A stretch of 44,241 bases of DNA, counting the filler, from Jimgerdemannia flammicorona (Eukaryota), in NCBI GenBank assembly GCA_003990765.1. It is 2 parts of 2 records of this genome, joined end to end, with 100 filler letters (N's around TTAATTAATTAA, not from the genome) between each part and the next. Parts side by side here need not be neighbours in the genome. Positions count along the whole stretch, not along the records: positions 22,175 to 44,241 come from RBNJ01001341.1; 1 more part is not named here. One strand, written 5' to 3'. This document shows, in pieces, positions 5,701 through 41,526 of the stretch. Each line of letters opens with the position of its first letter. The first letter of the stretch is position 1. Both the position numbers and the translations under genes were made by a program. The notes beneath the pieces were generated by a model. It did no database searches. It had not been told where the DNA came from and worked only from the letters and a program-made list of their open reading frames with translations.

Positions 5701-5719
5701 TCTCCAAAAAATGATATCT

Positions 5720-6990: not shown

Positions 6991-6992
6991 AG

Positions 6993-6994
<2 letters not shown>

Positions 6995-7056
<62 letters not shown>

Positions 7057-10000
7057 GTCTCTTAGACTCCTTTATTACAAACTATCTAATACAATAATGC
7101 AGAACCACAATTCACTACTAATCCTATAACATATACAGAAGTAGAGTCCTTTAGCCAACTCTTTCCTTTCATCTTACCCTACTATCATCTAACACTAGAA
7201 ATCCTCAACTCTGCAATACAATGTCCTACACCTTCTTTAAGGCCCCTGGCTGAAGTTGCCTCCCCTGATATCACCACCCCTGAACTACCTTCTGTATCAG
7301 CCACCTCCACTACTCCACTATCTCTCCAATCTCCATCCATAGGTCCTGTTCAAAAATCTACTGCCAATGCACTGCCATCAAGACCCAGACCCCCAAAACT
7401 TGACCTAAGCCCTCCCATATATCACCAATTTCCCCTACCAGCTGGTGCTTGACCACCAGACTGGCCAGATCCTCCGCCCTTCATCTCTCTGGGCCCCAGT
7501 AACCTTCCAGACTCTGCCAAAACCCTTCCACACCTGGACAGGCCCCCAGAACATGTTCCGGTGTCTGAACAACCCCTCCATCCACCTCATTACACTACTC
7601 ACAGTCTCGATAGCCATCTACCTTCATCCAGCCTGTCTGATAGCTCAGCATCACATTACATCTCAAAAACCGCCACCAAACCACCCAGTATATGGGGGGC
7701 ACCATCTTGTGTACCAAGGTTCCCCAATTCCAAATTTGAACCCACTCCCAGTCCTCACCAATATCAGCTCTCTGCCAACCAGGTGGCCATCTCTCCAGAG
7801 GGCCAAACCTGATCCACTCCATTGCCTCAATCAGGGAGTACTCCTTCAGACTGTGGCCACTCACGTGCAGGTCACCCAGTCACCACCAATGCTGCTCAGG
7901 GTCTACCCCCACCTCTATCTCTGGGCCTGCCAACCCCATGGCCAGCCAGGCCTCTACAATACTCCACCAGAACCCCTTGAAATGCAGCCTACCTACACTC
8001 CCAACCTGAAGCAAGCCCCGCATATCCTTCTAGACATCCACACAAGAGCAGAAACTGACCTCCCAATTGTCCATGGCCAGCCTGCCCCAACCTTCCTCAC
8101 CAAGTTCTATCAGTTGGTGCCCCCACCAACCCCGAAGTACCTTCAGTTAGCGCCTGAAATCCACCAGCCCCAGGCCGCCATCAGAAGTCCTCATCACCAA
8201 AGTCTCCCATCCAATCTGCAGATACCTCCCATGCCATATCCACCCTTTGACAATTTTCTTCAACTGCTGAACCACCCACTCTGGAAAATCCAGATGATAA
8301 CCTAGATACTACAGTTTGGGCAGCCAATTCACATTCAAGACCACTATCCTTCCAATCAAAGAGAAGCTCCTTCCTGAACAACCTGTCAATGCACCTTCCA
8401 GTCTCTGAATCAATCCACACCACCACTCTCTCAGCAGAACTGTCCCATACACCAAGAACTAAATACCCAGATACCGAACAGCACTCCCTCTAGCTACCAA
8501 TTGTCCAAATTGTCCATGTCCCCCCAGGCCAGCACCAAGTTCCATTGTCTCACACTTGCCCCAGTTCAACTTTGCCCCTGCCAGCCTCTCATACTGACCC
8601 ACCCCTTCTTGTAGGACTACTACATCCTCCTGACTGCCCAACCCTACCACCATGTCATCCGCAAAGACACCCAACTTCCAGACTACATCTCCCATCTGCA
8701 GTCCAAAAAGTCACCCCTTCAGCCACACCAACAAAGGCTCTAGAGAGAGTACATAAAGAAGAGGGGAGAGAGGATCCCCCTATGGTACCCCTTGCCCCAA
8801 GGCAAACTCTGGTCTACACCATCCATTCATCATCACTACAGCTTAGCATCCTTGTACCAAGCCCATCAGTCACCCTGCCTTTACGATACTGAACCCTGCC
8901 CTCCTCAGAACAGCCTTCAAGTAGCTCCACTGCACTCTGTCATAGGCCTTCTCTTGATCCAGAAAGACCATCTGGCCATCTACCTGCCAGCTCCTACAGC
9001 TCTCCAAGACATTCTACACTCAAGCAGTACTATCTCTGATCTGCCTCCCCTTGACAAAGCCTTGCTACTCTTCTCCAACTAGCACACCAACATATTGCTG
9101 CATCCTCCCTACCAGAATCTTTGACACCAACTTTCTATCTACATTCAGCAGCATGATAGGTCACCAATTGCACCACACTTGTCGATCTCCCTTTTCCTTA
9201 TATAGAAGAGAGACTAGTCTCAAGGAACCATTGCCGATCCAGCTACTCTCCTTCAGAACTGCATTGGCCATCTCTACCAACCAGTTACCAAACTTGGCCT
9301 TGAACTCCTTCCAGAATTCCCAGGGCAACCCATCCTCCCCAGAAGATGAACCAGTCTGCATCTTCCTCAGTACTTCCAATACTTCATCTAAAGACACCTC
9401 CCCCATGACTACCTCTCCTATCTCGGGTATCACTGTCACTGACCAATTAGTCACCATATTGTCATTATCCTTCTGAAGCCCAGCCTCCTCAGCATGCTCC
9501 CTACCATCCTGCCAAAGAGCTTGCCATTGACTGAATACCTCTCCTAGCATGTCAGCAATTCCAGAGACCTCCACTCTATCTTCACACAATACTGAGGCCC
9601 AACTATGTCACACTTGTCTGACCTTCAAAACACCAGACAGATATCTTATCAGCCTCTCTCATTCTTCCAACCATCTAGCTCACAGCCTGGCCAGCAGGCC
9701 ATCCACCACCCTAGTCTCTTTTTTTTTTTTTATAGTCTCCACCACCCTAGTCTCAGACACCCTTAAATCTGTCTGCAACCCTGCCACCTCTAATGCCAAC
9801 TGGTGGTACACCTCTCCAGACAAGTTCCCCTTTTCCAAAAGCTTCAATCGCCATCTCAGCCCCTTTTCAACTCTCCTTTCCTTGTCCTTCCATTCCTTCC
9901 CAGCTACTTCTCCAATATCCTGCCAGTAAGTACCAGCCAAATGTTTGAATTTACCCTACCATTCTGCTATCAACTGTTCTTTATTCTGCCATCACAAAAC

Positions 10001-12680
10001 TTCCTGTCTCATAACTGTCACAAAATCATCTCTCTCCTTCTTCCTCTTGAGTAAGGCTACATTAAGGTACTAGTACCCTCTGCCACTGCTTGCTGCTTGA
10101 AATCTACCACAAACCTCTACTCCCCAGTGATCAGACCAAGGGCACCAGTGTACCTCTGCAGTGTCCAGTATATTACCCCAGCACTCCGCCACTAGCACCC
10201 AATCTATTTGCATCCCAATGAACATTGTTCCAACTGGATGCCACCAGGTGAAAGGTCCCAACTTATCCCCCTGTCATTGACAAATGCCATCCACCAAACT
10301 CATGTCACACTCCATCTGAAGCCACTGAGAAAGTCCAGAGGATACCATGACTCCTGCTCTACCATCAGACCTTTTCAGTACACGATCACACACCATGTTA
10401 AAGTCCCCCCCCAGAATGTCCAAAGCAACTACCTCCTGACCATCCCATGCCAGCCATCTCTCAACTCATTGCTTTTGCTCTCTGCCAACTGCTGGGAGGT
10501 AAACTGAGCCAACTGTCAAACCATCACTAGCCCCACCTTTTAGTCTTCCCCAAATCAGTCTATCACCATAGATATCTACCTCCACCAGCTCACCTTTGCC
10601 AACACCAACCAAGACGCCCACCTGCTTATTCCAACCTGCTCCACCATACCATTCTTTACTCTACATCTCAAAGTCTGACTCACCATAAGCCCAAACATTC
10701 TGAAGAAACACAACATCATACCTCCTGACTTTAAGCTATCTGAAGAGCCGCCATCTTTTAACATCATCCTGCAATCCATTGACATTGATTGACAAAATAC
10801 ATAGGTTGTTCATCATCATTAAGGAAATTGTTTAAAGCTCAGCTGGGACTGCCACCACTTTCTCAGCCCTTCCTCTAACAATCTCTTGCTGGTTCTCACA
10901 AATTGCCCTCCAGATTTGATCACCATTTGCACTGCTGCAAAAAAGGTCCACTCTCTCTGTCATCACCTTCCTAATATCTGCCATCCTGCTCTTGTCAACA
11001 TCATATCCTTCATCATCCAGCAGGGCAGCTACCATCACCATCACCAGCTTAGGCCCCTGCATCACAATATTGAGGAATCCTTCCCATGCCTCCTGAGATC
11101 CATGAAACACATCTACTTCCTTGATGTCTTCCTCTACCAGCTCCTCAAGTACTGCCTGATACCAGCTCTCTGCTGTCATCACCAGGGGCCTGGGAGTCGA
11201 TGGCCTTGGGGTTCTGCTCAGCTCTTGCAGTTGCTCTCTGTCCACCAACACATCAGAAGTCACATCCACCAGCTCATTCTCCTCAGCAACTTTCTCCAAA
11301 TGAATAACCTCACCAGCTTCTGGGCACTCCCAATGGATATTCGCTGCTCCCACCATATAGGTATCCTCCACCTACTTCATCATCAACCTCAAAGCCTCCT
11401 TCACCAACCTCCTCCTTATCTGCCCACTTTCCTCTCACCAGCACATGTGCTGAGTTCTCTACACCACCCAGCTGGGAGAAGGACACCTCCACTGCCTCCA
11501 CGCCTTCCATCTGATTCTTGGCGGCCTCTACTCTTATCTCCTCTTCTATAGCTGCCCCTTGAAGGGCTGTCTACAGATGCTCCCAATTTCCTTTCCTCCA
11601 TCTCTTCCACTTGCCATCAGCCTCGATCCAGACCCAATCCTTGGCATACTCCTCCCACTTCCTCTTTTGCAGCTCCTTGGTAGCCTCTCTCTCCTCCAGA
11701 GCAATTGCCAACTCTTTCTCCTCCTGTTCTGCTCCCTTTCTCCTCCAGACCTTGCATTTCTGCCCTCCAATTCTAATCCCCTCAGGCCAATCACAGCCCA
11801 GCCCAGTAGCCTCCTTGTCTTCCAGTCACAGCATCACCTTATAGTTGCCATTCCTCAATTTGGTACCCTCCCAGAACATGAACCCAAAGTCCACCATCTT
11901 ACCATATCCACCTAGTGCCTCTACCACCATCTTCTTGGTCTCCTGTCTGCCCAGGGTCGGTAAACCTTCCACCACCAGCCAAACAGCATGTGGATTTCAC
12001 CTCAGACACCTTGCCATCCCAATCTGGATACCCTTGACCATCATCCCTTTCTCCAGCACCTTCACCATTACATTCTCCTCCACAAATCCAATCTCCACAG
12101 CCTCCACCAAAGGGATGAACTTCAGAGATTCTGCCCCAGCCACTTCCTCTCCCACCAACCTCAGAATCTCCCTTGCTGACATCACCAATCCCAGGAAGTT
12201 TACCAAGACTGCTCACATTGACACTGATTTGTGGAAGAAAGGCCTCACCACCAACTCACCTGTCTCTGCTGCCAGAGTCACCTTTTCCTTGGTCCTTGAA
12301 ACATCTGTAGTTATTCCACCAGGCACAGCTGCACCACCAGCAGTCCTCTCCCCAGCCACCTGCTCAGCCACAGAAGAATCAGTCTCCAGTGTCCCACTAC
12401 CAGACCCCTGTCCCCTGCCAGCCACCTGACCCATCACCTGACTCATCACCTGACCCCTCCCCCTGTCAACACTATGCCCCCCCTGTCTAATCCCCATGGG
12501 CCTAGTTGCAGCCCTCCTATTCCCAACCACTGTATGCCAGGCCTTGGTCCCACCAGTCCTCCCCTGTCCACCAGCCCTTTCTGCAGCTACACCAGCCCCT
12601 GCAGCAGCCGCAAAGCTCTTAGAAATACTCAGACCAGGTCTCCTTCTCTCCAGATGCTCAGAGCTAGAGGAATCTTAACT
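6995..12680 (-). mobile_element. Near-full-length degenerate L1/Tx1-type LINE (copy 2)
   Basis: Poly(T) at 6995-7053. ORF2 starts at ~10819 (MMMNNLCILSINVNGL, APE). RT motifs GEDGLPWEFW (9161-9589) and FADDMVV (8459-8695). C-terminal CxxC..PEH..C at ~7540-7600. ORF1 remnants at 10832-12530. Confidence 0.92.
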
Positions 12681-13667
12681 AGCCATGTCGCCAAAACTTA
12701 TCAGTTTTTCTGTACCTTGTAGGTAGACTCCTACCATATGATGTATACCATTATGTTCAAAATAAAAACTTAAAAATAGGTTGTCTTTTGCTGAAAGATG
12801 TCTGTGTGGCTTAGCTCTCTCTGAATGGTTCAAGCAAAAGAAGTCCCCCTGTTGAATGATCTGTTATTCACTCTTCCCTTCTCTCTCCTCTTTACCTCCC
12901 CTCCCTTCTCTCCCTCTCTCCTTACCCTCTCCATACCCCCTCTTCTTTCTCACTCCCAATTCTCATTGTACTATTCAATCATGCTTGCTGGGTTGCTCAA
13001 TGCCTTGATACTGTCCTGCACTCTTCTCTTTCATGCCATGGACTTTCATCTCTTTCTTGATACTCTCTGATCACTCGTTCGCGTCTTCCTTCTGTTTCTT
13101 CTCTAATCCATCACTCTCATTTGTGTTTTCATCACCTTCTGGTGTCTCTGGTTCTGCTGGAGAGGATTAAAAAACATCCTTGCCCCCTTTGGGGTCTCAC
13201 GCTCACTCCGGGGTCTCAGCCTTACTCCACTCTCCTCCACTACCTTTGGCCCCTTGCTTTGCTTGGGCTTACTGTAGCTTACTCCATTTCGGCCTCACAT
13301 CTCGCTCATGCTCACCCCTCCAGGGTCTGTGGATGTGTTTTAATCTTAATTTGGATTTGTCTTGTTTGTGTTTATTTGTGATTTTTATCCTGCAACTGGG
13401 ATTGGCTCCCCCTTTATCTCTGCCTATCTCTGGTAGTCATGTGGTTCCTAATTCGGTTTGCCCTGAGTTGTGGTGCATCCTCTCTTTTGGGATGTCATAT
13501 TTTGTATATAAGGACCACATTTTTACATAGTAATAAATGGCTGATGCATTTTCGGTTACGTTCTTTGTTTGTTCTCCTTATATACACTTTTCTACATATC
13601 TTCTGTTCACTTTGATACTGGCTCTGGGTTTGCTCCCTTGACTCCCACTGGGCCTTCCTCCTCCTCG

Positions 13668-14289: not shown

Positions 14290-15073
14290 AGTAAGTAAAG
14301 GACTTATATACAGGACTCTCTCAAAAGGACTGATATATAGACTAAGGCTTAAAAAAGCCCTACTCTTACTCTTTGAGTCTGTAGGCCTCAATTATATCGC
14401 TATGTTAGCTCCTAGTTCTAATTAAGTACTGCTAAATAAGGGAGATCCCACTCTCCAAGCCTGTAGGCCTCAATTGCATTACCACATCAGCTCCCAGTTC
14501 TAGTTGGATACAGCCAGGACACCAGCCCCTATACTACTCTACTCTCTATCAGCCAATCAAAAGGCCCTACTGAGATAATGTCTACTCTAATCCCAATGAC
14601 TGCTCCCAGCCTGATACCTTACTGGTCCACTATTATTGCCCTTCTGCCTATCTGTAACAGCCATCTCCCCTCCTATATCAGAACTATGCTCATGGAGAAG
14701 TTCACCAAAGCTCAGAGAGCTCCACTATAAGTACTGAGGACTTATAGGTAATTTATACTGACACTTGATACCTAAGGTCAGCTGACTCTATATACAGCCT
14801 ATGACACACCAGATGATACCTTGTTGGTGATGGCAAAAAGGAAGAAGGTACCATACTTGGGTATATTCTAGATATAGCCAAAGGTATTAGAAATCATAAA
14901 GATACTAATCTAATACTAATAATGGGACAACTCAATATCATTGCCTCCCTCCCACCATATCCTTGCAGGCACAACAAACCAACCTGAGGTAGAGGGGGTA
15001 AAAATAGGAGAAAGGGGACTTGGAAGGTTGCCTACCAAATCTTGTGATCAGTAAGATAGTGGAGAAAGGGGCT
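14290..15073 (-). mobile_element. Partial copy of the ~1.2-kb non-autonomous retroelement found at 36692-37882
   Basis: Collinear similarity to 37086-37880 (e.g. GTAAGTAAAGGACTTA; ACCTTGTTGG..AAAAGGAAGAAGGT; GGAGAAAGG). Contains an internal ~55-bp duplication (~14377 and ~14458). Confidence 0.8.
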
Positions 15074-15976: not shown

Positions 15977-16858
15977 ACTTGGTAGCAATGGAATTACCAA
16001 GCCAAGATAGTATTAAGAATATACTTCTGAGAAGTTAGAATAAGACTAATCTTAGACAGAAGTAACTCCAGAACTAACTATAAATTCCCAAAGAACAAAT
16101 CTATAAACCAGAGCCAATCTAACAATTGTAACTAGGACTAGATGGTATCAGAAAAATACAGACTCAAGGCTATATCAGCTTCTGATCAATAGGATATACA
16201 GAGACCTATATAAGATCTTTAGAAACTATTACATACCTAGATCTTAGAAATATAAGTAACTACCACAGATTTCACATTCTTATCTATAACCATATTAGGG
16301 TTACTAAAACTCAAGAATCTACAACTGCCACTATCTAGGAATTCTTAAGCTATATCTCTATAGCTTCTTCTATAGTAAGAGTAGTAGCTACTAAGTAGAT
16401 TACATCTAACAGATATTACCATACTTCTATCCAAATTTCTCTCTATTACTAGCTAGTTATATATATACTATACTACCACTATATCAAGATATAAGAATGA
16501 ATAGGTAGATTACCTACCTCCAACTTTTGATTAAGAAGTAGGTCTATCTACCTAGCCAGAATCTGATATTCTTTTTGAAGAACTAAGTTAGTATGAGGAT
16601 ATACTATCTCATTAGAAAAGAGAGTCAGATGAAGACTCAACAGAATACTAGTCTGATGATAGCTAATAAGGAATAGCAGACCTAGGAATCTACCAAGAAC
16701 TCATAGGTCAAGAAGATCAGATCCCAGAACCAACCCAGGCACCTACTTAGTAGTTCAGTTTACCTAGTCTTACTGGACTCTTTGACTTGATCTTTAGGAA
16801 TCAAGTAATTCTAAGTTACTCTGTCCTATAACTACAATAAGAAATAAGAGTTATTACA
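15977..16858 (+). mobile_element. PBS, decayed leader/gag, and the last ~18 bp of a 3' LTR (internally deleted LTR element)
   Basis: TGGTAGCAATGGAATT after the LTR is compatible with a transition-mutated tRNA-Leu-type PBS (TGGCAGCGGTGGGATT; inference). The region is homologous to 21585-22060. GAAATAAGAGTTATTACA at 16841-16858 matches the LTR 3' terminus. Confidence 0.65.
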
Positions 16859-17002
16859 ATTGATAAAGGTTTCAATATTACTGTTTTTTCTATCAAATAT
16901 AAGAATTCTCAAGGCTTTGGTTAGTTTGTTTTGTTCAGCAATTTGTCTTACTATCTCTGCTAATATAGCTAGCTAGACAGTTAGAGTCTGAATGTTGTCA
17001 TC

Positions 17003-17738
17003 ACCCCTCTCTTATTTTTAGATAATTAGAGAAATAAGATATTACATAGGAACTTAGTATATAAGTATACTAAGAAGCCTTCAGTATAAAAAAATACTTA
17101 CTTAAAAGTAGTTATAGTAGTATTATCCTTCTTGATAACCATAGTTATAAGAGACTTATTTTTTACTATATATAGACTAAATTTACCTTGAAATTCAGAT
17201 TCAATAAAGAGTTTTTCTTAAGTCTTTGGAATTTATATATCAGTCTCAGTTATAACAAAAGTTAGCTAGATTTTTAAAGTTTAGTCAGAAATGCTAGAGT
17301 CACTTAAGTGATATTACTAAAACTCAGAAGAATGTATATATATAGAGAGAGACTTAATTTTTATATTAAGAACTGAAATAAACCTGTCTTTATTTTGGAT
17401 AAAATATTAAGAGTATTTATATAAATTGGTTCATGATTTCTAACTAAGTATAAGTGACTAATTTGGTAACTATAGTTAGTTTGTAATTGCAATCTTTATA
17501 ATCAGGACCTTTATAATATAAATTATTAAATAATAATCAATTGCTACAGAAATTTGCTATAGTACCAGTTGTTAGAGATAAGCTAAATATTATTTATCTA
17601 TATTTTTATATCATTCACATCCTATTTATTATATTTATCATATATCATACTTAATTATAATATCATCAATACTGGGTTATATGATTGCTTATTATATCTT
17701 CTTATTTATTATCATATCTCACCTATTCACTCTATTAC
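17003..17738 (-). repeat. 3' LTR (copy C), fully CpG-eroded, of the minus-strand chromovirus
   Basis: The reverse complement aligns with LTRs A and B throughout (AATAGAGTGAATAGGTGAGATATGAT vs AATAGAGCGAACGGGCGAGACGCGAC). It lies downstream of the pol at 19100-20841, after a TTTTTAAGAG PPT remnant. Confidence 0.82.
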
Positions 17739-19099
17739 TCTTAAAAATCAATATCTATAGATTTAAAAATTGAGAACTAAGAAAAAAGTTGGGATATCCT
17801 TTACTTTATCTATTATATTATTATTGTCTTCTTCACCAGTAGTTAGAGAGGTAGTTACTGATGGCTCAGTATCAAATATAAAGAAGTTAATAAGGTCTAC
17901 AAATGATTCTTAAATATCTGCAAGTAGTGATATAGGAGTTCTCCATCTAATATAGTTGAGACCATCTAGGTAGAAAACTTATTTATCATACCTAAAAAAT
18001 ACTTTTATGTAAGTAGTCCTTCAAAGAGATTAGAAAGACCTTGGAGCCATTGGTCTGAGTTGTTATTTAGAAGAGAACTCCAGTAGAGTTCACAATCAGT
18101 AGACTTGAGAGTGATTTAAAAGTGAGCTTCTTCAGTGATCTTGATTTCTAGTATATTAACCTCAGAGAAAGAGAGACTCTGGAAGTTCTTTGATTATACA
18201 TAGGTGAGGTTAGAGATTGCAAAAGATATATGCTATATAATTTGATAGATCTTCATAACAAGTCTTTACTCTTATCTTATCTAGATAGGCCTAGTTTATG
18301 ACTTAGTTAGTAGTTAGATCTTATACTCATTGGAGAAGTTAGTGTCTAATTTTATATTCATATTAGATTTTAAAGTAACTGGTAGTAACATAGATCCTGT
18401 TGGTGACTTTGCAGTAGTTGAGAACATAGTATCCTAGATTCTGACTAGTGAGGTTAAGAGCTTCAGAATGGTAGTTTCTTCCTTGAATAGTAACTTGGAT
18501 ATATCCAAAAAGACAGTCAACCTGGCTTAAGAGGGGCTTGCTATAGCAGATAGTTTAGTAGTAGGTAACAGATATTTTTGTGTTTTTTATTTGAGAAAGA
18601 GGAAAGGGATAAAGGTTATGGGGTCCTTATCTTGGATATTTATACCTATATATATAGCTGATGTAACTTTATTTTGATCACATTTCTGAGATTATATGAC
18701 TTGTTGCTATAAGTAGAACATATGTTAGTTATATGGGAAATATAGGATTTCTCTAACTTGAAATTTTCTTCTTTTGACTTTAGATGGAAAGTTGGTTGCT
18801 CTGTTAAGATATTGTCCTCCAGACTGCAGAATGTGGGTTCAAATCTGATCAGATAACTTTCTGTAGCTGCTGATAAGTACTATATCATACTGGTATAGTT
18901 ATTATATATTACACTATATAGTTCTTCTGATTTAACTATATATAGGAGATCTAAAGGAGTTTTTTAATAGAAAAATCTTTTGTATTATTGGCTAATTATA
19001 GTATTTCTTTTCAATATTATATATTTTGAATAAATATATATTATCTTCTTCTTCACTATATAATTTAAGTTTAGAGCTGCAGTTTGTTTCTTTACTATA

Positions 19100-20841
19100 A
19101 GATGAGTGTTTCTATATAGTCTTAAAGAGCTTTATATATATTCTCTAGTACTTCTTCCCTTTCCCAAGTAGTATCATGGATAGAGTAACTCTTCTACTTG
19201 ATAAAGAAGAACTACTTAACTATTTTGAGATATTTACATATCTTGTAGTCAAGTACTTCCTTGATTTCAAATTTCTTATAATTATTAAACCTAATTAAGT
19301 ATAGTAGTGAAACTATATACTTGAGAAATAGATTTATATAGTAGTCTACCAGTTGACTAATATAGAGTACTGAGTAAACTTAAATATTAGAGAGAAGTTA
19401 CAGCTTATAGTTAACTTTGCTGACTTCTTTCACAATCTTGTATGGTTCAATTCTTCTGGTATAGAGTTTCTTAGATAGTTGCTAAGCCAGGATATCTGGG
19501 TGGAGATAGTTTATTTTAAACATAACCATATTACTAATATTATAGGAGACTACTCTTTACTTCAAGTTGGTATACTTGGTCTGATAGTTCTATACTTCTA
19601 TAAGAGTATTTTTTATTATTCATATAAGGTTAGAAATAGTCTTAGATAAATTTTAGACTACTGAAACTACTGATTTCATAGTAAAGCTTAGAGTCCTTGA
19701 GTATTGATCATAATTTAGAAAGAATGGAATCTTCTTTATAGAGATTTGTTGATGTTATTATAGGCAAACTCAGTATGGGTCAGATATTTGTTCCAATTAT
19801 TTTACTTAAAATAGTAGAAGATACTAAGTATCTGCTTGAGTGTTCTGTTGGTTTACTTGATCTATTCATCAGTCTAGAGATAATAGACTATAGAGAACTT
19901 CAGTTTGATACTATAGAGAGAAAAGAATATCTTTCAGAAGTTATTTATAAACTTAGCATCTCAGTTAGATATAATAATACTAAGTATGCTATATAGTCTA
20001 AATATTTAGTTGAGGAAGATTTTGACAATCTCAGAGATTGTAGCAGTGGTTTTAGTGAGTGTAAAATAGGCTTGTTTTCTGAGGTGGTCTATGAATACTA
20101 CAATGGCATCCTAACCTATTTTGGTCTTAGAGAGCTGAATAATGAAGTCTACTATAATCTGATTCTAGTTATAATTAAAGATAGACAGAAGTTACAGAAG
20201 TCTTACTGGTAGCTTATTATTGCTTTTGAATCTTTGGCACATTTCATATGAGGCTATGAAATCTTTGATATCTTTGGTCATCTTTGGCTAGTAGAACTCT
20301 CTTGAGAGAAAATTATAAATCTTTTCAAAACTAAAATATCCTACTATAGGAGTATCATAAGTTTCTATATTATCTTAAGTCACAGAGTATCATCATTGGA
20401 TACTACCACTCTATCATAGTCCTTATAGATGAGTCCATCATGGTATGTGAATCTTTTAGACATCCTCTTTATAGATTCTGGGACCTCAGTCTCTAGGTCT
20501 TAGCAGAATTGAAGAAATTTTACCAGAGAGCTGCTTTTTTAGTAACTATTCTTGATAATCTGAGTGAGGTCTCTAATAATTTTAACCATGAAGACAAGTT
20601 CATCTGCCATATATCTGGAGAAACCATCAGCCACATGGTTTGTTTTGTCTGAGATATACTTGAATTTCATATCAAAGTTGATAATGATTTCTATCCACCA
20701 GACTTATCTGTAGATCAGTATGGGCTATGTATGAATATACCACAAGGTATAGTGATTAGTGTAGGCCATGAATGGTTGTCCTAGGAAAAAATAGAGCTAT
20801 TCCTGGAGTGCAGTGATAATGGCCAGGAGTTCCTTCTCATG
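19100..20841 (-). mobile_element. Chromovirus (Ty3/Gypsy) pol remnant: RNase H, integrase, chromodomain
   Basis: KELLAIITALQE..TNHVADGFSR (RNase H), IVDFIIQLSKT..DAIVVFID (integrase core) and FEIKEVLDY..FFIK*KSYSIHDTTWE (chromodomain). Cut at 20842 by an opposite-strand LTR of the same family. Confidence 0.9.
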
Positions 20842-25992: not shown

Positions 25993-26004
25993 TATATATA
26001 GTAT

Positions 26005-29000
26005 AGTGACAGCAGAGTGTTGGGGAGCAGATGTCTGGTCAGTGCTGGAAGTAGTTTAGTATTCATGGTCTGATCACTAGGAGCTGCTTGGAGGGGGGAG
26101 GTTTGGGGGAAGTGAGGATGGGCCTAGACATTGGTGGCTAAATTCTTCCTTATTAAAGGATAGGGTATTGTGGGAGGGTTGGAAAATGGAGGTGGTTGGG
26201 AATATTGGTAGGTGGTGGGAACAAGGTCTTGAGATTAGGGACTACTGGAGAAGACTGAAGGCAAATTCTCAGAGATATTAGAGGGAAGCAGGGAAATGAA
26301 AGTGTGCCCAGCAAAGGCAGAGGGTACTGTGGGCCTTGCAGTATCTGGCAGTACTCATAGAGAGATGGGCAGATGTGCTGGAAGATGGGGAGGTGACTGA
26401 TTGGTGTATTGTGAGAATCTGGCAGAAGGTAGAGGAGCTTAAAGGAGTATTACAAAGAGAGGAGGAGGTGAAGCTACAGAGAATGGTGGCCCAACTGTGG
26501 TGGCAGGGGCTTGAGGTGGGGGAGAGGCCTACTAGGTTTTTGTTGCAGTTGTTATAAGTATGATGAATAAAGCAGTGGTGGGAGGGAGTTCTGGATACGA
26601 ATGGTAAGCTGGTGGTGGGGACTCTGGCAATTCTGGGCCTATTGAGAACTAGTTGAGAGAATCTTTGGAGTGAGGAGGAAGGAGGAGTAGATGCTTTGGA
26701 CATTGAAAGGCAGTTGGGGGATTGGTACCCGAACCCTGTGATGGGCCTTGGGACATTGGGGGACCCAGTGAGTGGTGAGGAAATTTGCAGGGTTGTGGCC
26801 TCGATGAGTAAGAGAACAGCTCTGGGAGAGGATGGACTTCTCTGGGATTTTTGGCAGAAGATGGCTGGAGTGAGTGAGGTGCTAGAGGAAATGACTGCTA
26901 TGTATGATGGAGTTCTTCAGTCAGGTGCTTGGATTGGGGGACAGTACTTAGGGCTAGTCTCCTTACTCTACAAGAATAAGGGGAGGCAAGAAGACTGGAA
27001 GAACTGGCAGCCAATTATACTTCTCGACATGGACCACAAACTGGTGATAAAGATCTTGGTGATGAGGCTGTAAGGTATTGCTCAGCAGGTGCTTGGTGTG
27101 GAGCAGCGTGGGTTTGTTGGTGGCCAGTTGATTCGAGATGAGACAGCTTGGGTACATGGAGTGATTGAAGGTGCCTGGGTGATAGGAGTGGATGGCAGAT
27201 TAGTATTTCTGGATCAAGAGAAGGCTTATGATAGAGTGCAAAGGATATGGCTAGAGGGAGTACTGAAATGGATTAGTATCCCCCCAGAGTTCTGAGGATC
27301 ATTGATCAGCCTCTTGACAGACAGTCAGGCAGCATTAATTGTTAATGGCCACAGGGGAGTGACCTTTCCCCTGGGACATGGGGTACTGCAAGGAGACCCC
27401 TTGTCACCCATATTGTATGCCCTCTCCTTGGAGCCTCTACTGGACAGAATTTGGTGCCAAATTGGGGGCTTGGACATTTTAGGGATTAATTGGAAGGTAG
27501 AGGCCTTTACTGATAATATAGTGGTTGGGCTGGGCTCCTTGGAGGATGTGGGGGAGTTACAGAGGTCTGTAGAATGGTATGAGAGGGATTCTAGTACTAA
27601 ACTAAACTGGCACAAATGTGAGACTCTGGTTCTGGGTACTGGAATTGTTGGTGGTGATGTAATTGGGATAGTGGTACTGGCTGGCAAACCAGTGCATTAT
27701 TTGGGGATCTACTTTTTAGTATTCAGATCTCTTCTTCCCTGGATATAGTGGGACTGACAACTTCTGGAGTGGGGAAATGTTCTGCTGTGATGGGGAGGTC
27801 AGCATATATCTCTAGCCAGAAGGGTGATGGTGCTGAATGTGTATTGGATGCCGAAGCTGTGATATGTGGGATATTATTTAGATTTCCCAACCTAGGTGGT
27901 CAAGGGGCTATTGAAGATGGTGAGGTCATAGATCTGGGGAGGGCAGTGAAGCCAGGTGGGTTGGGAGGTGCTCACACTGCCCTTGAAAAGAAGTGGGCTG
28001 GGCTTAGTGGACTTTACTAAGTAGCTTCAATGTTTGAGAGCTTGGTGGTTGTGAAGGGTGAGTGAGCTTAGGGGTTGGGAGTGGGTGCCACTTATGCAGA
28101 GGTTGTGGGAGGTTCAGTACTCCCCATGTGGTAACTCGGGTGACCTGCTTGTGATGGTGGCCATGGATGAGAGCAGAAGAATGCAGTTTATGGGCTTCTG
28201 GTGGGGGGTAGTAGATGGTGCTAAGAAAATTGGACTTCGGTAGTAAGGTAATGAAGCTGAGAAGGATTAGAGACCACAGATATGGTGGTGGGACAGGCTT
28301 CTACTGGGTGGTGTTCCAGTGGAGAATTTTTAGCTTGGCGAGAGTCTGGAGTATCTGTGGGGTCTGGGTGGAGACCTGTGGCCCAAGGCCTGGCAGAGGG
28401 TTGGAATTAGTGAGGAGTGGGATTGAAATGGACTCTGGCTTTGGAGCAAAAGAGTGAGGCAGTGGCTGCCCCCCAAGTTCTGGGTGGTATGGTGGCATGT
28501 CCTACAGCAGAATGTGATATTGAACTATCAGTCTAGGTACTTGGTGGATAGTGGAGTATTCGAGTACGAGGATTGTTTTGATGTTAGTCAGGAGGGAGGA
28601 GTGGTACAAATGCCTGAACATTGACTTAGCAAGTGCAAGGTTTTGGAGGAGTTTTGGAGATGTATTATAGACCAAGTAGGACTGAGTGCCTTGGAGGGAG
28701 AGGAAGGGGGGAGATGGGGAGAGCTCTACCGGCGACTGGTGGGTGGGGTTGGGGATGAATGGCTGACCCTTAGTTGGGCTTTGGCCATGTGGGTTGAGTT
28801 AGCTGGGCATTGGGTTCATGTCTTTGAGGAGGAGTGGTGGGTTGGGGTTGGGAACAAGGTGGCACATTGGGAATGGTTGCTATTGGACATTTTGAATAGC
28901 TGGTGGCAAGGTTGGGGGCTGAGTGGGGGGAACCACAGAGGTTTGGTACAGTGTATCTCCCAGAAGAGTGGTGGGAGGATTCAGATAGTGGATAGTTGGG

Positions 29001-29136
29001 TGGTACTCAGGCAGGGGGAGGTCAAGGGGGGAGGATTGGGCCCATGGGGCATTGGTTGAGATTGGGGATGATATTGTATAGTTAGAATTATAGACGTCAG
29101 TAATAAAAGGTAGGCAGTAATAAAGTAAAAAAAAAT
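26005..29136 (+). mobile_element. 5'-truncated L1/Tx1-type LINE (copy 5)
   Basis: WSDH end of APE at ~26065; GEDGLLWDFW, WQPIILLDMDHK, FLDQEKAYDRV, GVLQGDPLSPILY, FTDNIVV; AATAAA plus A-tail at ~29119-29136. Confidence 0.92.
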
Positions 29137-29233
29137 ATATAGTATAGCTACTATTTTACCTTTCATATACCTTTAAAGAAGTGAGATATATTAAGACCTA
29201 GTTCTTCATTTAACCTCAAGATACTATATTATA

Positions 29234-30804
29234 TAGTAGTAAGTTAAAGAATAATAATATTTGGCAAATTTTACTTTTTTAAATAATATCTCTATAAATA
29301 ATTAATATAATAAAATATAACTTATATTTTTTAAAAGCTCTTGTTTTTTTTTATCATTAGATAAAATATTATTTTGATATCATTTTTATTTAGCTTATAA
29401 TAAATTTTTATATTAATACTATTTATTATTACTCTTTTGGCTTTTTTACTATAAATTTTGCTATTTTAATATTTCATACAACCTTCTTTGATCTTATATA
29501 TAGCAGTAATATATATATCTTAATATGCTCTCATATAAGTTAATTATTTTTCAGTTGATATATCTTCCTATTCCTACTCAATATATTCTTAAAGCTTGTA
29601 TATTTCTTTAAGTAATTTGTTATATATATTGAGTACTTGTTTTAGATATCTCCAAAGATGTTTAATTAGATTAAAATCAGATGACTGTGCTGATCAATCT
29701 AGCAAATAGATAAAATTATCTTTGAACTAGTTGTATACTATCTTTGATATATATTTTAGATTATTATCTTATTGAAATATTACCTTCTTTTTATCTATTC
29801 TAAAGAATTTAATAGATTTCTTTAATTTATTACTGAGAATTTCTATATATAGCTTTGTATTCATATACTTATCAATTTTGCATATATCCAATACTATAGT
29901 AACTTATATATCTCTAAATCATAATTGATCTACTATTAAATTTCAATATTAGAGTTATATATATAATATTGCTCAAGCTATATACTAGGCCTCTTCTATA
30001 TCCATTCTCATCTATCTGATCTCAAATAGTTGACTTTCATTTTGTCTGAGAATATTATCTATTTTTATAAATTTATACTATAATTTAATAAAGTGTAGTA
30101 ATAATAATAACTTTTCTACTTTATAAATAACTTCAAACTGATATCTTTTAATATTCAATATATAGTAGTAGTGCTCACACTAGCTTGGCCCTCTTCTTGA
30201 AGAGTTTTTGTAATATTTGTAGTAATTTCAATTTTACCATTAAATATTTAGTAAATAATTTAGAATTTATCTTAAGTAGATAATTTTGATGGCTGACCTT
30301 CTTTTGATATATTTAGATCATCACAATGCTTATTTTGGATATAGCTAATAGAAGTAATACTTATACTAATTGCTTTGGTAATCTTTTTTGCCAACTGCTC
30401 AGAATTTAATCTATTAATAATAATATTATGAATCTTGATAGATAGCTTTTGTATTCTGTATAAGAAATAAATATTAGTATGAATTTTTACACTATTTTTA
30501 TATCAAGGACAATGTCAAAAATAGTCATATACATATTACAGCTATATAAAAAGTTAAAGTGGGTTATATGAAATATTAAAATAGTAAAATTTGTAGTAGA
30601 AAAGTCATAATAATAAATAGTATTAATATAAAAATTTATTGTAAGCTAAATAAAAATAGTATCAAAATAATATTTTAATCAATAGTAAAGAAAAATAAGA
30701 GCTTTTGAAAAATATAAGTTACATTTTATTATATTAATTATTTATAGAGATATTATTTAAAAAAGTAAAATTTGTCAAATATTATTATTCTTTACTTACT
30801 ACTA
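29234..30804 (-). mobile_element. Tc1-family DNA transposon with ~285-bp TIRs and a dead transposase
   Basis: Inverted repeats at ~29234-29520 and ~30525-30804, flanked by TA. Minus-strand FQ*DNNLKYISK..LLD*SAQSSDFNLIKHLW is a mutated FQQDNDPKH..WPAQSPDLNPIEHLW. Confidence 0.92.
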
Positions 30805-31455
30805 TATATACTATAGTATTAAAAACTATACTGAGATATCTAATTATATAGTAATATATTGATAAAACTTTCTGCAGAAAGATAACTCATTTGGGGTTCA
30901 TAAATATTACCAGCTTATAAATAAATATTTATTAGCTATTTTTCATTATTAATTACTATTCTATAATCTATTTATCCAAAAGTCAAAAATTGTTCTCCTA
31001 TCTGCTATATCTGTTAACCAATAATAAAGTAATCTAATAGCCTCATAAAAAATAAAAAATAAAGTAATCTAATAGCTTTAAAAATATATATAATTTATCT
31101 ATATTTGGATAATTGATCTATTTTTGACCCTCACAATAAAATTTATCAATTTATTTATTATTTAATATTTTATGTAATCATTCTTTATAATAACTTTCTT
31201 GATATACTCTCTTTTAGTGGTCAACATATTAAAATGTAAGTTTTAGATCAGACAAAAAAAAAAAAAAAAAAGGGCTCAGGTGTCAGAGGTGTCAGAGCTT
31301 GGCGTTGTGGTCAAGGGACGAATGATGTCATGTCGCACAAGTCACGGGACCGCAAAACTTATACCGAAGGAAGCTTGTAGAACCAGCTCTCAACAACTGA
31401 CAACTGACCCAACCTGAACCCCCCGCCCTTTTCTCCTCATTCTACTCATTCCAAC

Positions 31456-35297: not shown

Positions 35298-35450
35298 GAT
35301 CTACGCCTACATTGGAACCTATACATTCCTTATCAAACCTCACATTACTGTTTAAGTCTATATTAGGATATATACAAGTCCAGTAAGGGAGCAGGTTCCC
35401 GCGCCAGCCCTTTTAGGCTGACTCTTTCTGAATGGTGAGGTAACAAAGGA
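35298..35450 (-). ncRNA. Putative Fanzor omegaRNA scaffold plus flank-derived guide
   Basis: Stems CAGCC/GGCTG (35405-35420), GGGA/TCCC with loop ACCTGC (35387-35400) and TTACTG/CAGTAA (35345-35386) lie between the tnpB stop region and the right-end GG. The 5' boundary is unknown. Confidence 0.6.
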
Positions 35451-38060
35451 GAATGTTGTGAGTGTCATTGAAATCCCGGTCAAGCTTTGTCTGACATGCT
35501 GGACAGCAAAACACCTTAGATCTGCCTAGGCCACAGTGGAGATATTCATAGCATCCACATGTTTTAAAAGTATATTCTTTGTGCAGAAGATGACCTGGCA
35601 CCATAGATGCTCTTATACTTTATGAGTCAGATAAGTGTGACTATGTGTATATTGTATATGTAGTTTTAGAACAAATATAACATTATTCTATCTGATTATC
35701 TTCTGTATACAGAATTCTGACAAAAAAAATAATATGATAGTTCTCACATAGCTACTGTGTGAGCTTATTATAAATATGTAACATAATATATCACAATCTA
35801 TAATTAGTAAATTTATATATATCTCTTTCAATATCTGATCTCTTTTTTACAGTTGAAGAGGTTAAAAACAATGTATATCAAACTGATCTATAGTATTTAT
35901 GCTTGTTTATCTTTCTATGAATACTATCTCACTTACTTTAAAGCTTATCATATTTATAACTCAGTCTGTAAATATGGATAATATTATTCTTTCCTTACTC
36001 AATTGCTAGCCTACTTGGATCATATCTAGTCATAAAGATTTATACACTAGAATTTAATATAATAACTCCTGTACCTCTTTTACCAGATATAGGGCCTTGG
36101 CTCTTAGTCTATATATTAAGGAGTATAGAGATATAGAGATAGAATTCACTAAGATGATTTATTATAAGCTAACTATTATATTTAAGATTGACTGATAAAG
36201 GTTCAGTAGATCTCATATTAGAGAGGAATGCAAATTCACTATATGATTTCCTCCAGTACTTGGAAAGTATTGCAATTGACTAAAAAAATAAAATAAAATA
36301 AAATAAAATAAAAATAAATTATTGAAAATTATAAGAATTTAATATAAAATCAAAATGATTTTCATTTGTTGATAATTCTTTTTAGAATGAAATTTCATTT
36401 GAAACATATGTTTTGCTATAAAGTTAGAGATATACTCCTTGAAAGAGTCATTTATAGTCTTATAATAAATATCATATGGTGTCTTCAGAACTCACTCATC
36501 ATTGTTCTTGAAGTTAAAAGTATTGAGATACCACACTCTCAGATTCTTCTTACAGTATTTTATACTTTTGTTTTGAACTATGGTGAGATACTGATTATAT
36601 ATCCATCATGTTGTTCTCATTCTTAATTATTAATATTATAAGTATAGTTGTTTTAAGAGACAAAAAAAAAAAAAAAGATAAATTCATCTAATTTTTTTTT
36701 TTTTTTTTTTAACGGACTCATGTCCCATGGAATTTTATTGGAAGGGAACCTAGACTATATAGGCCAAAACCCTCCCCTACCACCCACCAAGCACTGTCTC
36801 CCTATTAACTTAGGTTAGCTATTATCCAGCAGCTCAACCATGCTAGATACAGCAGGACCTATATTGGCCCATATCTCATTCTATACACTATACTCTCCCT
36901 ACTACCAGGAGAAACCCAACTATATGCCAACAACCAAAAGTGCATGCCTGAGAACTCAACATATGTACAAGGCCATGTCTGAGCCAAATAGAATAGCTCC
37001 TGCCATCCCAAAGAGAATGATAGGCAAAAAAAAAACTCTCATCAAAGTACAACATGGTGAGTAGGATCTGGTTCTCCCAGTCGAGGTAAGTAAAGGACTT
37101 ACATATGAGGTGGGAGGAAGCCCCCAATACCCCACTACTCAAGTCTGTGGGCCTTGATCACATTACCATATCAGCTCTCAATTCTAGTTGAGTGCAGCTA
37201 AGATGCCTGAAATGGATAGCCTTGGGCCCTCTGACCCCTCCTGATGACTGGGGCCCAACCCCACTGATCACCAAAAGAAGCTGAGAGTGACACCTACCAC
37301 CTAACCATACTGTATCAATCAAAAGGCCCCACCAAAGCAGCATCTGCCCCAGCCCTAATGACCACCCCCAGCCTGGCACCCTACTGGTTCACCATTATTG
37401 CCCTTCCTCCTATCTGTGATGACCATCTCTCCTCCCATCCTGACAATATCTGAAAAGCAGTTACCTATACCAGAACTGCACTCGCCGGGAAGCTTGTCAA
37501 AGCCAGAGGGCTCCACCACAGGCACCAAAGATCTGCAGGTAACCTATACTGAGCACTTAATGCCCAAGGTCGGCCAACTTCCTACATAGTCTGAGATACA
37601 TCAAGACAACACCTTGTTGGCAATGGTAAAAGGAAGAAGGTGCTGCACTAAAACAAGTATACCCCAGATATAGCTGAAGGCACTAGAATCTGCAAAAAAG
37701 TGGAGGAAGCACCGATCTGATACCAATAAAGGGGCAACTCATCACCATTGCTCTCCTCCCACCATGCCCCTACAGGTACAGCAAACCAACCCAAGGTAAA
37801 GGGGGTAATATTAGGGGAAAGGGAACTTAGAAGGTTGTCTACCAAACCTTGTGACTGATAAGGTAGCGGAGAAAGGAGCCTGGATAAATTCATCCAATAT
37901 ACCAGTATATAATACAGTATTGTAGAAAAAAAAAAATGCTCAAAAGAATAATTATTATATTCTAAGCTTCTACTACTCCTTATAGATAGAAAAGAGGTAG
38001 ATTTTTTATACTTTAGCTAGTAGCTCCTTAGAGATCTTGGTTCTCTTTAATAACTTCTTA
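35413..38060 (-). pseudogene. tnpB: Fanzor2 (IS607-type TnpB) RNA-guided nuclease pseudogene with 3 introns
   Basis: AKV*KIYLF..KLR | MRTT*WIYNQ..E*VLKTPYDI..FQMKFHSKKNYQQ | SIAILSKYW..GVIILNSSV*IFMTRYDPS (RuvC-I, ancestral ALDPGVRTF) | LCENYHII..SEF (RuvC-II) ..EYTFKTCGC..GRSKVFCCPACQTKLDRDFNDTHNILL (Zn finger plus RuvC-III). The start position is uncertain. Confidence 0.9.
36692..37882 (-). mobile_element. 1.19-kb non-autonomous poly(A) retroelement with a 15-bp TSD
   Basis: Poly(T) at 36692-36710 with AATAAA upstream on the minus strand. TSD GATAAATTCATC(T/C)AA at 36677-36691 and 37883-37897. A second copy lies at 14290-15073. Confidence 0.9.
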
Positions 38061-38667
38061 TCTCTGCTTGTAGTTGGTAGCTGAGTATAGTCTGTTATGT
38101 TATATTACAAAAACTGTAATAATGACAAGCAGGTTCTCTGCAAGTTTTCTAGTCTTAGAGTTATTAATAGTACTAATATCTGAATTAAGAACTATAAGCT
38201 GAGTTCATTCTTCTCAAAGATCCATTTTATGAGTTCTGATCCAAAATGATACAACTGATCTTTTTAGACAACTACCACTTCTTCAACTCTTTCTACATGT
38301 ACTCATTCTAAAAGAGTAACAAACCCTCTGTATTTCCAGTTGAGCTCAAGCTGATATCACTGACAATCTCATGTTTTGGAAAACACTATCACAGATCAGT
38401 AATTTGTCATTCAAAATCTCTTTGTTGGTGTTCAGAACTGACTCTGGTATAGCAGATCTTAGTCTTTTGCATGGATTATTGTTGTCTTGTAAGCTGATTG
38501 TTGTCAAACAATCTGTGAATATCTGTAATGAAGTAGAGTTATTTGCCACTGAAGGTTCTGATGAAAGACATGCACTCTGAGACAGCCCACTGCCACAGGG
38601 TTTCGACTAAGACATCATAAGTTTGTTTGATACTATTTGCACTTGTGTAGGTGGTATTTCGAGCCAG
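37962..38667 (-). pseudogene. tnpA: IS607-family TnpA serine recombinase (MerR-like HTH + catalytic domain) pseudogene
   Basis: YTSANSIKQTYDVLVETLWQWA..IRTFSGK*LY (HTH), KICYTRVSSEHQQRDFE*Q (catalytic Ser motif), SDIS / LNWKYRGFVTLLE..VEEVVV*KDQLYHFGSELIKWIFEKN / LAENLLVIITVFV. Two frameshifts and several stops. CTG stands at the expected ATG. Confidence 0.92.
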
Positions 38668-39238
38668 GTTGTTTTTTTTTTTTTTTTTTTTTTTTTTTGG
38701 AGATTTGCTGAGGAATGTGCGGAATCCGCGCATGTGGTAGGTTGCATTTATATGTTTTGCACGTGTTAAATATGAAAGCCAAACAACTATCACTCACATA
38801 CCCCTACTAATTTCCATAGGAAAGTGAGCTTTATTCTGGAACGTTCAGAAACGCTGCAACGGTCAATTATCAAAAGTTGAGTAAGTTGAGCTTTTGGAAC
38901 CAAAGAAAGGTACCCTCTTGATTATTGACAGAGACTTTGCGAGAGCACAGCTAGGGTCCAATGTCATTAGAGCCTCGCAAGTCACCTCTCACAATATTAT
39001 TCCCTCTTCAACCATATGTCCAAACGAAAGTCCCCTTTGGTCCTACCAATCTTCAAGCATCGTGAAAACCCGCCACGGTGCACGTCGCAGCACGCCAAGC
39101 CGCCGCGCGAGCGACGCCTTGACGCAATGAAGGTTTATAGAATGGTGCATGTACAATGGCCTAGGCGGCCGGTGCGAAGTGGAATGATATATGATTTAAA
39201 AGATTTGTATGTGGCGCGTGATGTATTACGCGAGGACG

Positions 39239-40661: not shown

Positions 40662-41464
40662 GACGAGGGGGGAAGGGTGAGGGAGAAGGGGAATGTTGGA
40701 GATGAAATAATTTGGGGATGGATTCACGTGAATGTCCAGGGTGGGTTAGTGTCAGGGCTCATGGTGGAACTGTTGTTCGCTTGGCATTGGATCACATTCA
40801 CTCAATGATGCATTGAAACACAAAGGAAGAGGAATGCATATCGAGTCTCAGGCGCTTGCTGGTATATTTTGCATCCATGAGAAAAACAAAGAACACAACG
40901 TCCGAATAACAAACGAGACTGTCCACAACCCAAGAGAGAGCCGAGTTAAAAGAATTGGCGACCAAACAGGCCATAGACCAATAAAGAACAGGCCAAGGAC
41001 GCCCCGGGCGTCCGGCAAAAGCACAGACCAAGATTTAGGGTATAAGGCAAAAACTAGGATAATGCAAAAGCACACTGTAAATGAGGATTGAATGCGAGAA
41101 CAGGATAGTACAGAACAGATGATTTTCTGTATGAACGGAATATAATGTTCGATGAAGAGAAACAAGGGGATATACTACACGTCTAGGCAAAGGCGGGAGG
41201 GAGGGAGGAGGTTTGGGGTAAGGGGAGGGGTAGGGGTAGGGGTAGGGCGCAATGTATATACGGGAAAGGAGTGGTGAGTGATTTGAGAATGCTGATGCAC
41301 AAGACGTAGGAGAGGGGGAGAAGAAATATAGTTTTCGCGGGAAAGGGTAGTTTATAGAACCCCGTAATGTATGAGTTTGCCGAAAAGTTCGATGTAAAAA
41401 TGATGTGAAGAATGCCGACCAGGACCAATCACTACTAAAATGGTGATAAGAAAAAAAGAAAGAA

Positions 41465-41465
<1 letters not shown>

Positions 41466-41526
<61 letters not shown>

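Follow-up and report, generated by a model that had tools for sequence, protein, structure and literature searches.

Genes for Fanzor2 (Fz2) carried in IS607-type elements have been known since 2013 (Bao and Jurka, PMC3627910), and, as far as the accessible text goes, Fz2 occurs broadly in fungi (Saito et al. 2023, PMC10432273). Fanzor genes are further described, in the accessible part of Jiang et al. (2023, Sci Adv, PMC10530073), as having captured introns at densities of up to ~9.6 per kb, which that paper reads as adaptation to the eukaryotic host. Here we analyze a stretch of 44,241 nucleotides, filler included (the window), from Jimgerdemannia flammicorona (GenBank assembly GCA_003990765.1), in which the minus strand from 38672 to 35303 is one copy of an IS607-type transposon with a TnpA serine recombinase gene and a Fanzor2/TnpB gene. 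The original prediction placed three spliceosomal-type introns with AT instead of GT donors in the Fanzor2 gene. We find three gaps at the predicted coordinates, each starting with AT and ending with AG, with flanks that match Fanzor2/TnpB relatives. The reading that we favor, at a probability of roughly 0.7, is that they are decayed GT..AG introns in a dead IS607-type Fanzor2 copy, and that a retroposon later inserted within the first of them.

Gap 3 as the relic of an intron present in relatives

For comparison we used 54 metagenomic loci (L001-L054) found by a metagenome scan with the close relative P0155; the counts given below for each intron site are over the loci in which that site was measurable (27, 33, 36, 40 or 42, depending on the site). 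The sizes of the intron sites and of gap 2 were measured between anchor peptides; a MAFFT alignment of the DNA misplaced gap 2. Slashes mark the boundaries of a gap or intron.

Gap 3 (35798..35887, minus strand; 90 nt) lies in phase 2 within an Arg codon and reads AG/ATCAGT...TACTAAT..TATAG/, with its AT at 35887-35886, its AG at 35799-35798 and the TACTAAT motif 7 nt before its end. At the same site, 8 of the 27 measurable relatives (L012, L013, L014, L015, L023, L027, L035 and L044) carry an AT-rich segment of 63-78 nt, and all eight segments begin with GT, end with AG and split an Arg codon as AG/.../A. The window junctions AG/ATCAGT...TTATAG/ATTG align with AG/GTAAA[AT]...TTGTAG/[AG]TT in these relatives, the 3'-terminal bases of the intron show homology (AATTGTAG against AATTATAG), and the first nine codons past the window's acceptor match the LRHVMLRIH-type sequence of the relatives, from which they differ mostly by C>T or G>A. 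Two more loci, L010 and L036, which are 87-98% identical to intron-bearing loci, contain exact GT..AG-excised junctions both at this site (intron C) and at a second intron site just before the RuvC-I motif (intron B). Because these excised junctions are exact, whether the two loci derive from RNA or from intron-less DNA, the segments at sites B and C act as true introns. A position and phase in common with introns of homologous genes was found for gap 3 only. Since 8/8 homologous introns begin with GT, the ancestral donor of gap 3 would have been GT. The alignment to these introns confirms gap 3, on grounds of sequence homology, as the relic of a spliceosomal-type intron common to relatives whose donor GT is now AT, and the predicted boundaries of intron 3 and its GT-to-AT change are borne out by the GT..AG introns of the eight relatives.

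The original prediction also held that removing the gaps restores the reading frame. This fails for gap 3, whose 90 nt amount to 30 codons already in frame with both flanks. A length that is a multiple of three would suit an in-frame coding insertion, a 30-codon loop with no intron involved, but the gap contains one stop, is absent from 19 of 19 aligned homologous proteins and coincides with a stop-filled GT..AG segment in eight relatives that is precisely missing in two further loci; we hold a coding loop to be very improbable. For the gaps in general, frame restoration is weak evidence of introns, as frameshifts unrelated to introns occur in the copy as well: TnpA runs across three frames, and exon 4 contains two compensating shifts. 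Shorter introns within gap 3 (42, 46, 49, 53 and 57 nt, some with GT) were considered and rejected, being at odds with the DNA alignment, which fixes exact boundaries. In protein alignments only 18-20 residues of the gap look extra, as if the predicted boundaries would delete 10-11 conserved residues; the DNA alignment shows that they do not. The 11 codons that seem to be missing were lost by another deletion, deeper in exon 4, which that alignment shows as a 33-nt in-frame one.

Candidate introns at gaps 1 and 2

Gap 1 (36622..37955, minus strand; 1334 nt) begins with AT at 37955-37954 and ends with AG at 36623-36622. Its flanks abut exactly on the uninterrupted TG/G ATG of seven relatives (alignment A5), and because these relatives are contiguous there, the Trp codon is truly split in the window, as TA/A. 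The boundaries and the split Trp of the predicted intron 1 hold, and its length of 1334 nt does not, since 1206 nt of the gap are a later insertion and what is left is a 128-nt AT-rich candidate (17% GC) that starts with AT and ends with AAG. The insertion consists of a copy of a retroposon of the type without long terminal repeats (36693..37882, minus strand; 1190 nt, ending in A19 at 36711-36693) and a target-site duplication (family D6, 16 nt; 3' copy at 36677..36692, 5' copy at 37883..37898), the two copies of which are 15/16 identical and spaced by 1206. The nested element thus has a poly(A) tail, a target-site duplication and other copies in the genome: a second, diverged copy lies at 14447-15072, and diverged copies are abundant in X1, a run of RNA-like contigs (depth about 660-677 at most, one of them on a 3259-nt contig). 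Searching its three minus-strand frames against Pfam returned no family, and no reverse-transcriptase or endonuclease open reading frame (ORF); the copy is probably truncated or non-autonomous.

Gap 2 (36280..36365, minus strand) runs from AT at 36365-36364 to AG at 36281-36280. As predicted, its length between the QQ and SI codons, measured by anchor peptides, is exactly 86 nt; it reads AT...TAG, has 7% GC and contains an (ATTTT)6.6 microsatellite at 36285-36318. Gaps 1 and 2 are both clean interruptions, with no flanking base lost, gained or duplicated. The sizes of 128 and 86 nt fit the introns of relatives (spans of 63-113 nt) and also the host's own RNA-supported introns (102-168 nt, run X1). 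Across AT-rich tiles of the window, AG accounts for only 5.8% of dinucleotides; within gaps 1 and 2 its share is 1.6% and 1.2%.

Extra DNA is present in none of 40 relatives at the gap 1 site (W/MGT) and in none of 36 at the gap 2 site (QQ/SI), which leaves the predicted introns 1 and 2 unconfirmed by the original prediction's own criterion, the lack of these segments in other copies. Gap 3 could accordingly be the sole intron relic, and the remainder of gap 1 together with gap 2 could be junk acquired after the death of the copy, for instance filler DNA, small non-autonomous elements or the product of microsatellite growth. Besides these empty sites, it suits such an origin that the copy took a post-mortem retroposon insertion plus indels, that an (ATTTT)n array takes up 34 nt of the 86-nt gap 2, and that gap 1 has 8-nt inverted termini (TAATTATT / AATAATTA). 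Post-death junk would, however, have had to interrupt the gene exactly at both places with neither target-site duplication nor deletion, to end in AG at both (a joint chance of ~0.003 by the AT-rich-tile frequency) and to match the introns of relatives and host in size, and we consider it unlikely. Judged on these features of the DNA, an intron origin is rather likely for the remainder of gap 1, and to the same degree for gap 2; the two are probably introns specific to the lineage of the window's element.

Decay of the copy and probable loss of the donors

The window copy is a dead pseudogene of the Fanzor2/TnpB family and no active member of it. Fanzor2 exons 2-4 contain 13 in-frame stops in total, the RuvC-I Asp has become Asn (ALDPGV of the relatives is ILNSSV in the window), and neither an intact set of RuvC catalytic residues nor an open reading frame is found in this copy. 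None of the three gaps is spliceable today. By the rules of U2-type introns, no gap has a GT or GC 5' end, all three reading AT; the 3' ends do conform (AAG, TAG and TAG), and gap 3 has the branch-site-like motif TACTAAT.

That three of three gaps start with AT and end with AG might also suggest a live gene whose introns are functional and non-canonical (AT-AG or U12-type). U12-type introns have the donor /ATATCC and the 3' end AC. The donors here, ATAATT, ATGAAA and ATCAGT, misfit that motif, and the 3' ends are AG, never AC. A live gene is further contradicted by the stops, frameshifts, 33-nt deletion and Asp>Asn change described above, by the GT that relatives have at the homologous gap 3 donor, and by run X1, in which there is no joint at the gaps and one contig is unspliced across the gap 3 acceptor. 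We give functional non-canonical introns next to no credence, less even than a coding loop at gap 3. The RNA evidence comes from this one run, with a depth of 0-10 over the Fanzor2 exons, and the lack of splice joints at the three gaps in it is uninformative on expression or splicing. The contig that crosses the gap 3 acceptor unspliced (480 nt, 35356-35836, depth 9.9, no mismatches) covers the Fanzor2 3' end and starts 9 nt past the contig of the neighboring gene, transcription of which may simply have read through.

The G>A decay proposed for the donors is borne out in the copy as a whole, in a form other than the textbook process in fungi. Compared with six relatives, the window reads A at 34-45% of the positions at which they have G and T at 33-40% of those at which they have C, and the reverse changes amount to 5-13%. 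By context, change is highest at CpG (62-75%), followed by CpA (32-43%), CpC (~30%) and CpT (10-20%), and the observed/expected ratio of CpG is 0.11 in the element, 0.05 in other repeats and ~1.0 in flanking genes. Set against expressed copies, the nested retroposon has changed in the same direction, with T>C 75 and A>G 44 versus C>T 24 and G>A 18. In fungi, repeat-induced point mutation (RIP) is similar in its excess of C>T and G>A in repeated DNA, with creation of stops and AT-richness; it differs in that CpG is the most affected context here and that the classical RIP index, (CpA+TpG)/(ApC+GpT), is 1.1-1.4 across the element (1.14-1.40). Classical RIP, which targets CpA, raises TpA/ApT and brings the index below ~1, is therefore not what the element displays. 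Classical RIP is not known to be established in Mucoromycota-like hosts. The pattern looks like methyl-CpG deamination with a broader deamination bias added, as judged from context frequencies.

RIP-like C>T/G>A hypermutation marks the repeats of the window in general (16000-20000, 29000-31000 and 35300-38700), while the flanking genes keep normal CpG. Positions 1-13000 and 26000-29000 are repeat DNA of strand-asymmetric composition; their GC skew is extreme (-0.37 to -0.59 and +0.34 to +0.53, respectively), and their CpG observed/expected ratio is ~0.05.

A sequence of events that would account for the locus begins with an active ancestor whose pre-mRNA contained ordinary U2-type GT..AG introns. 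Both the 128-nt remainder of gap 1 and gap 2, with its 86 nt, would be introns gained in the element's lineage. After the death of the copy, C>T/G>A-biased mutation, indels and the retroposon insertion would have degraded it, and the GT donors of gaps 1 and 2 would have been lost to the same G>A decay. Several observations weigh against this account. The donor G stands in a GpG context, in which only 23-34% of the relatives' G are A in the window, and the mutation of three of three donors would be ~1-4% likely, barring chance or selection by the reader who first noted them; the G of all three acceptors survives. The acceptor of gap 1, AAG, is weak, and the microsatellite of gap 2 (34 nt) could have grown after the death of the copy. 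To these are added the empty gap 1 and gap 2 sites in the relatives, the fact that L010 and L036 may be either RNA-derived or intron-less DNA copies, and the weak grouping of the window with the clade that has intron C (support 0.785, on a long branch).

Intron turnover in the family

The relatives have introns at two sites that are uninterrupted in the window. Intron A, present in 14 of 33 loci, lies inside TnpA between RK and DRL and has the form GTTT[AG]A...TACTAAC...ATTAG, with a length of 64-73 nt (100 nt in the degenerate locus L022); intron B is present in 10 of 42 loci. With intron C, which is retained in the window as gap 3, and the gap 1 and gap 2 sites, which are occupied in the window and in no measurable relative, five sites are seen, and as A, B and C each occur in some loci only, the TnpA/Fanzor2 family demonstrably gains or loses introns. 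Intron A lies in double-coding DNA, and its removal leaves both frames open; the initial assignment of this intron to the Fanzor N-terminus alone was rejected, because it is a TnpA intron within the region of overlap. Its presence in these relatives contradicts, for the family, the original view of an intronless TnpA with intron gain limited to the nuclease. Gap 1 of the window itself also cuts the tail of TnpA, homology to which resumes at 36615-36523.

Overlapping TnpA and Fanzor2 frames

The original prediction described a bacterial-style two-gene cassette with the nuclease as its downstream ORF, a layout that intact relatives do not have. In L016, which is intron-less and intact (locus span 256-1999), TnpA has its ATG at 256 and Fanzor2 at 263, and the two ORFs overlap by 770 nt. 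Across the five loci L016, L020, L021, L025 and L026, the Fanzor2 ATG follows the TnpA ATG by 7-124 nt and the overlap is 530-770 nt, such that TnpA lies almost wholly inside the Fanzor2 ORF in another frame. We counted stops across the TnpA span in 17 loci, of which L046 was unscored and L035 (partial) and L039 (degenerate) were set aside; in the remaining 14 loci, stops number 0-1 in the Fanzor frame and 7-25 in the third frame. The canonical TnpB helix-turn-helix (HTH) starts only at residue 204 of the 578-residue ORF, and for this reason the preceding part is taken as an N-terminal extension of Fanzor2 overprinted on TnpA. That the extension is a real protein fits a published Fanzor2 structure, in the accessible text of which the N-terminal domain is structured and functional (PMC11832414).

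In the Diversispora-like group (L003, 195-617) and in the window (38670-38600), the interval from the element's left end to the HTH is without an ATG in the TnpA frame; the overlapping Fanzor frame does have one there (M[TS]SQ...).

With start codons 7-124 nt apart, leaky scanning of a single capped mRNA could yield both proteins, as far as the arrangement of the frames suggests. A broader reading would make the window the fossil of a Mucoromycota/Glomeromycota IS607-Fanzor2 family in which a bacterial two-gene insertion sequence was rebuilt into one eukaryotic transcription unit, with TnpA nested in the nuclease gene and repeated intron turnover at at least five sites, gaps 1 and 2 being further gains. 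Under it, both overlapping frames depend on the correct splicing of intron A, and gap 1 again falls in double-coding DNA. We advance this single-unit organization tentatively, at slightly less than even odds.

Extent and domain content of the element

The whole dead TnpA and Fanzor2 element occupies 35303..38672 on the minus strand, 3370 nt including the 1206-nt nested insertion. At its left limit, homology to relatives starts at 38672/38670; at its right limit, the conserved terminal sequence ...TGTAGGCGT ends at 35303, and every relative diverges beyond it. The spliced TnpA and Fanzor2 proteins of the intact relative L003 align over 38672-35385 by tblastn. A tract of A/T homopolymer at 38672-38699 directly adjoins the left end; such tracts, ~28-60 nt long, are also seen at 6992-7054 and 41451-41526.

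TnpA (37968..38670, minus strand) is a pseudogene of a serine recombinase with a MerR-type HTH and extends over three frames (38670-38353, 38344-38207 and 38204-37968), to which the TnpA of L003 is 55%, 67% and 43% identical by tblastn. An IS607-type TnpA (MerR HTH plus Resolvase) is thereby found next to the nuclease gene, at a joint E of 4e-49 with L003 TnpA; the window's own match to Pfam Resolvase is weak and sub-threshold (E 0.007, 16.9 bits), and the TnpA of relatives matches Resolvase (E 1.4e-22) and MerR domains. The C-terminal tail of TnpA follows gap 1 at 36523..36615 (minus strand), overlapping Fanzor2 exon 2 in another frame, and matches residues 247-277 of L003 TnpA by tblastn (45% identity, E 0.005).

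The four Fanzor2 exons are all on the minus strand. Exon 1 (37956..38618), the frameshifted N-terminal extension overprinted on TnpA, is matched by the Fanzor protein of L003 at 38672-38352 and 38376-38206 (tblastn); it ends in KLRI and the TA of the split Trp, and its final 60 nt align with relatives as far as the TG of TGG. Exon 2 (36366..36621) covers the MGTARWTYN-type HTH region as far as KKxxQQ and has 2 in-frame stops. Exon 3 (35888..36279) covers the WED/RuvC-I region, with the mutated RuvC-I Asp and 6 in-frame stops, and exon 4 (35413..35797) covers RuvC-II, the zinc ribbon and the DRD of RuvC-III, with 5; the Fanzor2 stop codon is TAA at 35415-35413. A profile of 17 homologs places 36620-36366 on profile positions 125-219 (43.5 bits, E 3.4e-15) and 36279-35410 on positions 216-484 (160.9 bits). 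The decayed translation of 36279-35410 matches Pfam PF07282 (E 7.3e-6; 26.5 bits, cut-off 26.3), and Fanzor2/TnpB homology therefore includes the zinc-ribbon (TNB) domain. With a decayed translation as query, a word-indexed protein search gave 116 candidates and none that was significant, which made an exhaustive search necessary; the latter, with the translation of 36279-35410, returned 973 TnpB/Fanzor proteins at E<=1e-3, the best at 1.7e-27.

Downstream of the stop codon, a conserved 3' non-coding end (35303..35412, minus strand) reaches the right end of the element. Over the 3' 86-160 nt it is 73-78% identical to ten relatives, homology to which stops at the shared terminal motif, and in the window it retains a GC-rich core amid the surrounding decay. 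It is a putative guide-RNA (omega/fRNA) scaffold and the likely right end of the element, to judge from its conservation.

The nearest named relatives of the Fanzor2 gene are Glomeromycota gene models, from Gigaspora margarita, Diversispora epigaea and Rhizophagus clarus. The flanking aminotransferase-like gene of the host is 72% identical to an Endogone sp. protein and <=54% identical to its counterparts in Bifiguratus, Umbelopsis and Mortierella, which places the host among the Mucoromycota, near Endogonales. The window falls on a long branch in a quick maximum-likelihood tree of 42 rows, sister to the clade with introns B and C (support 0.785), within a clade of support 1.00 that also includes the L001-L009 group. 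Public gene models of this family from Diversispora and Gigaspora (P0294, P0006, P0011 and P0013) are chimeras, some of which skip or frame-shift through exons, and MerR, Resolvase and TnpB-HTH domains occur together in a single Diversispora model (427 aa). The overlapping frames, introns and decay are probably the cause, and annotators should be warned that public models of the TnpA/Fanzor2 family fuse or mis-splice the two genes.

Comparison with known systems

Taken alone, the locus is a molecular fossil: AT "donors" among stop codons are what decay is expected to leave, and intron capture by Fanzor genes has already been published. Its value lies in comparison. The locus anchors an intron position common to an Endogone-like host and relatives of Glomeromycota type, the presence or absence of introns varies between close copies of one transposon family, and the locus points to an overlapping-frame layout that would answer how a "downstream" nuclease could be translated in a eukaryote.

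In the open-access literature, supplements aside, word searches found no paper that joins Fanzor with Glomeromycota or Mucoromycota, with overlapping ORFs or with leaky scanning. The words "intron" and "overlap" have no occurrence in PMC3627910, nor does "intron" in Saito et al. (PMC10432273) or in the preprint 10.1101/2023.08.09.552727; the accessible text of the ApmFz2 structure paper (PMC11832414) contains neither "overlap" nor "TnpA".

The element shares with the IS607-type Fanzor2 elements described from eukaryotes, as far as their accessible descriptions go, an IS607-type serine recombinase followed by a TnpB-like nuclease whose motifs include RuvC, zinc ribbon and DRD, the lack of noted terminal inverted repeats and a conserved 3' non-coding end. 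It differs in that the copy is dead and in that its relatives are from Glomeromycota (Diversispora, Gigaspora and Rhizophagus) and its host is Endogone-like, whereas the fungal Fanzor2 hosts in the accessible table of PMC3627910 are Saccharomycetes. Introns A, B and C, together with intron 3 of the window, are instances of the intron capture that Jiang et al. describe in the accessible part of their paper, the supplementary tables of which may already list these fungal loci. Unlike that account, the present comparison follows presence and absence site by site in one close family, with precisely spliced forms among its members, and one of the introns lies in DNA that codes in two frames.

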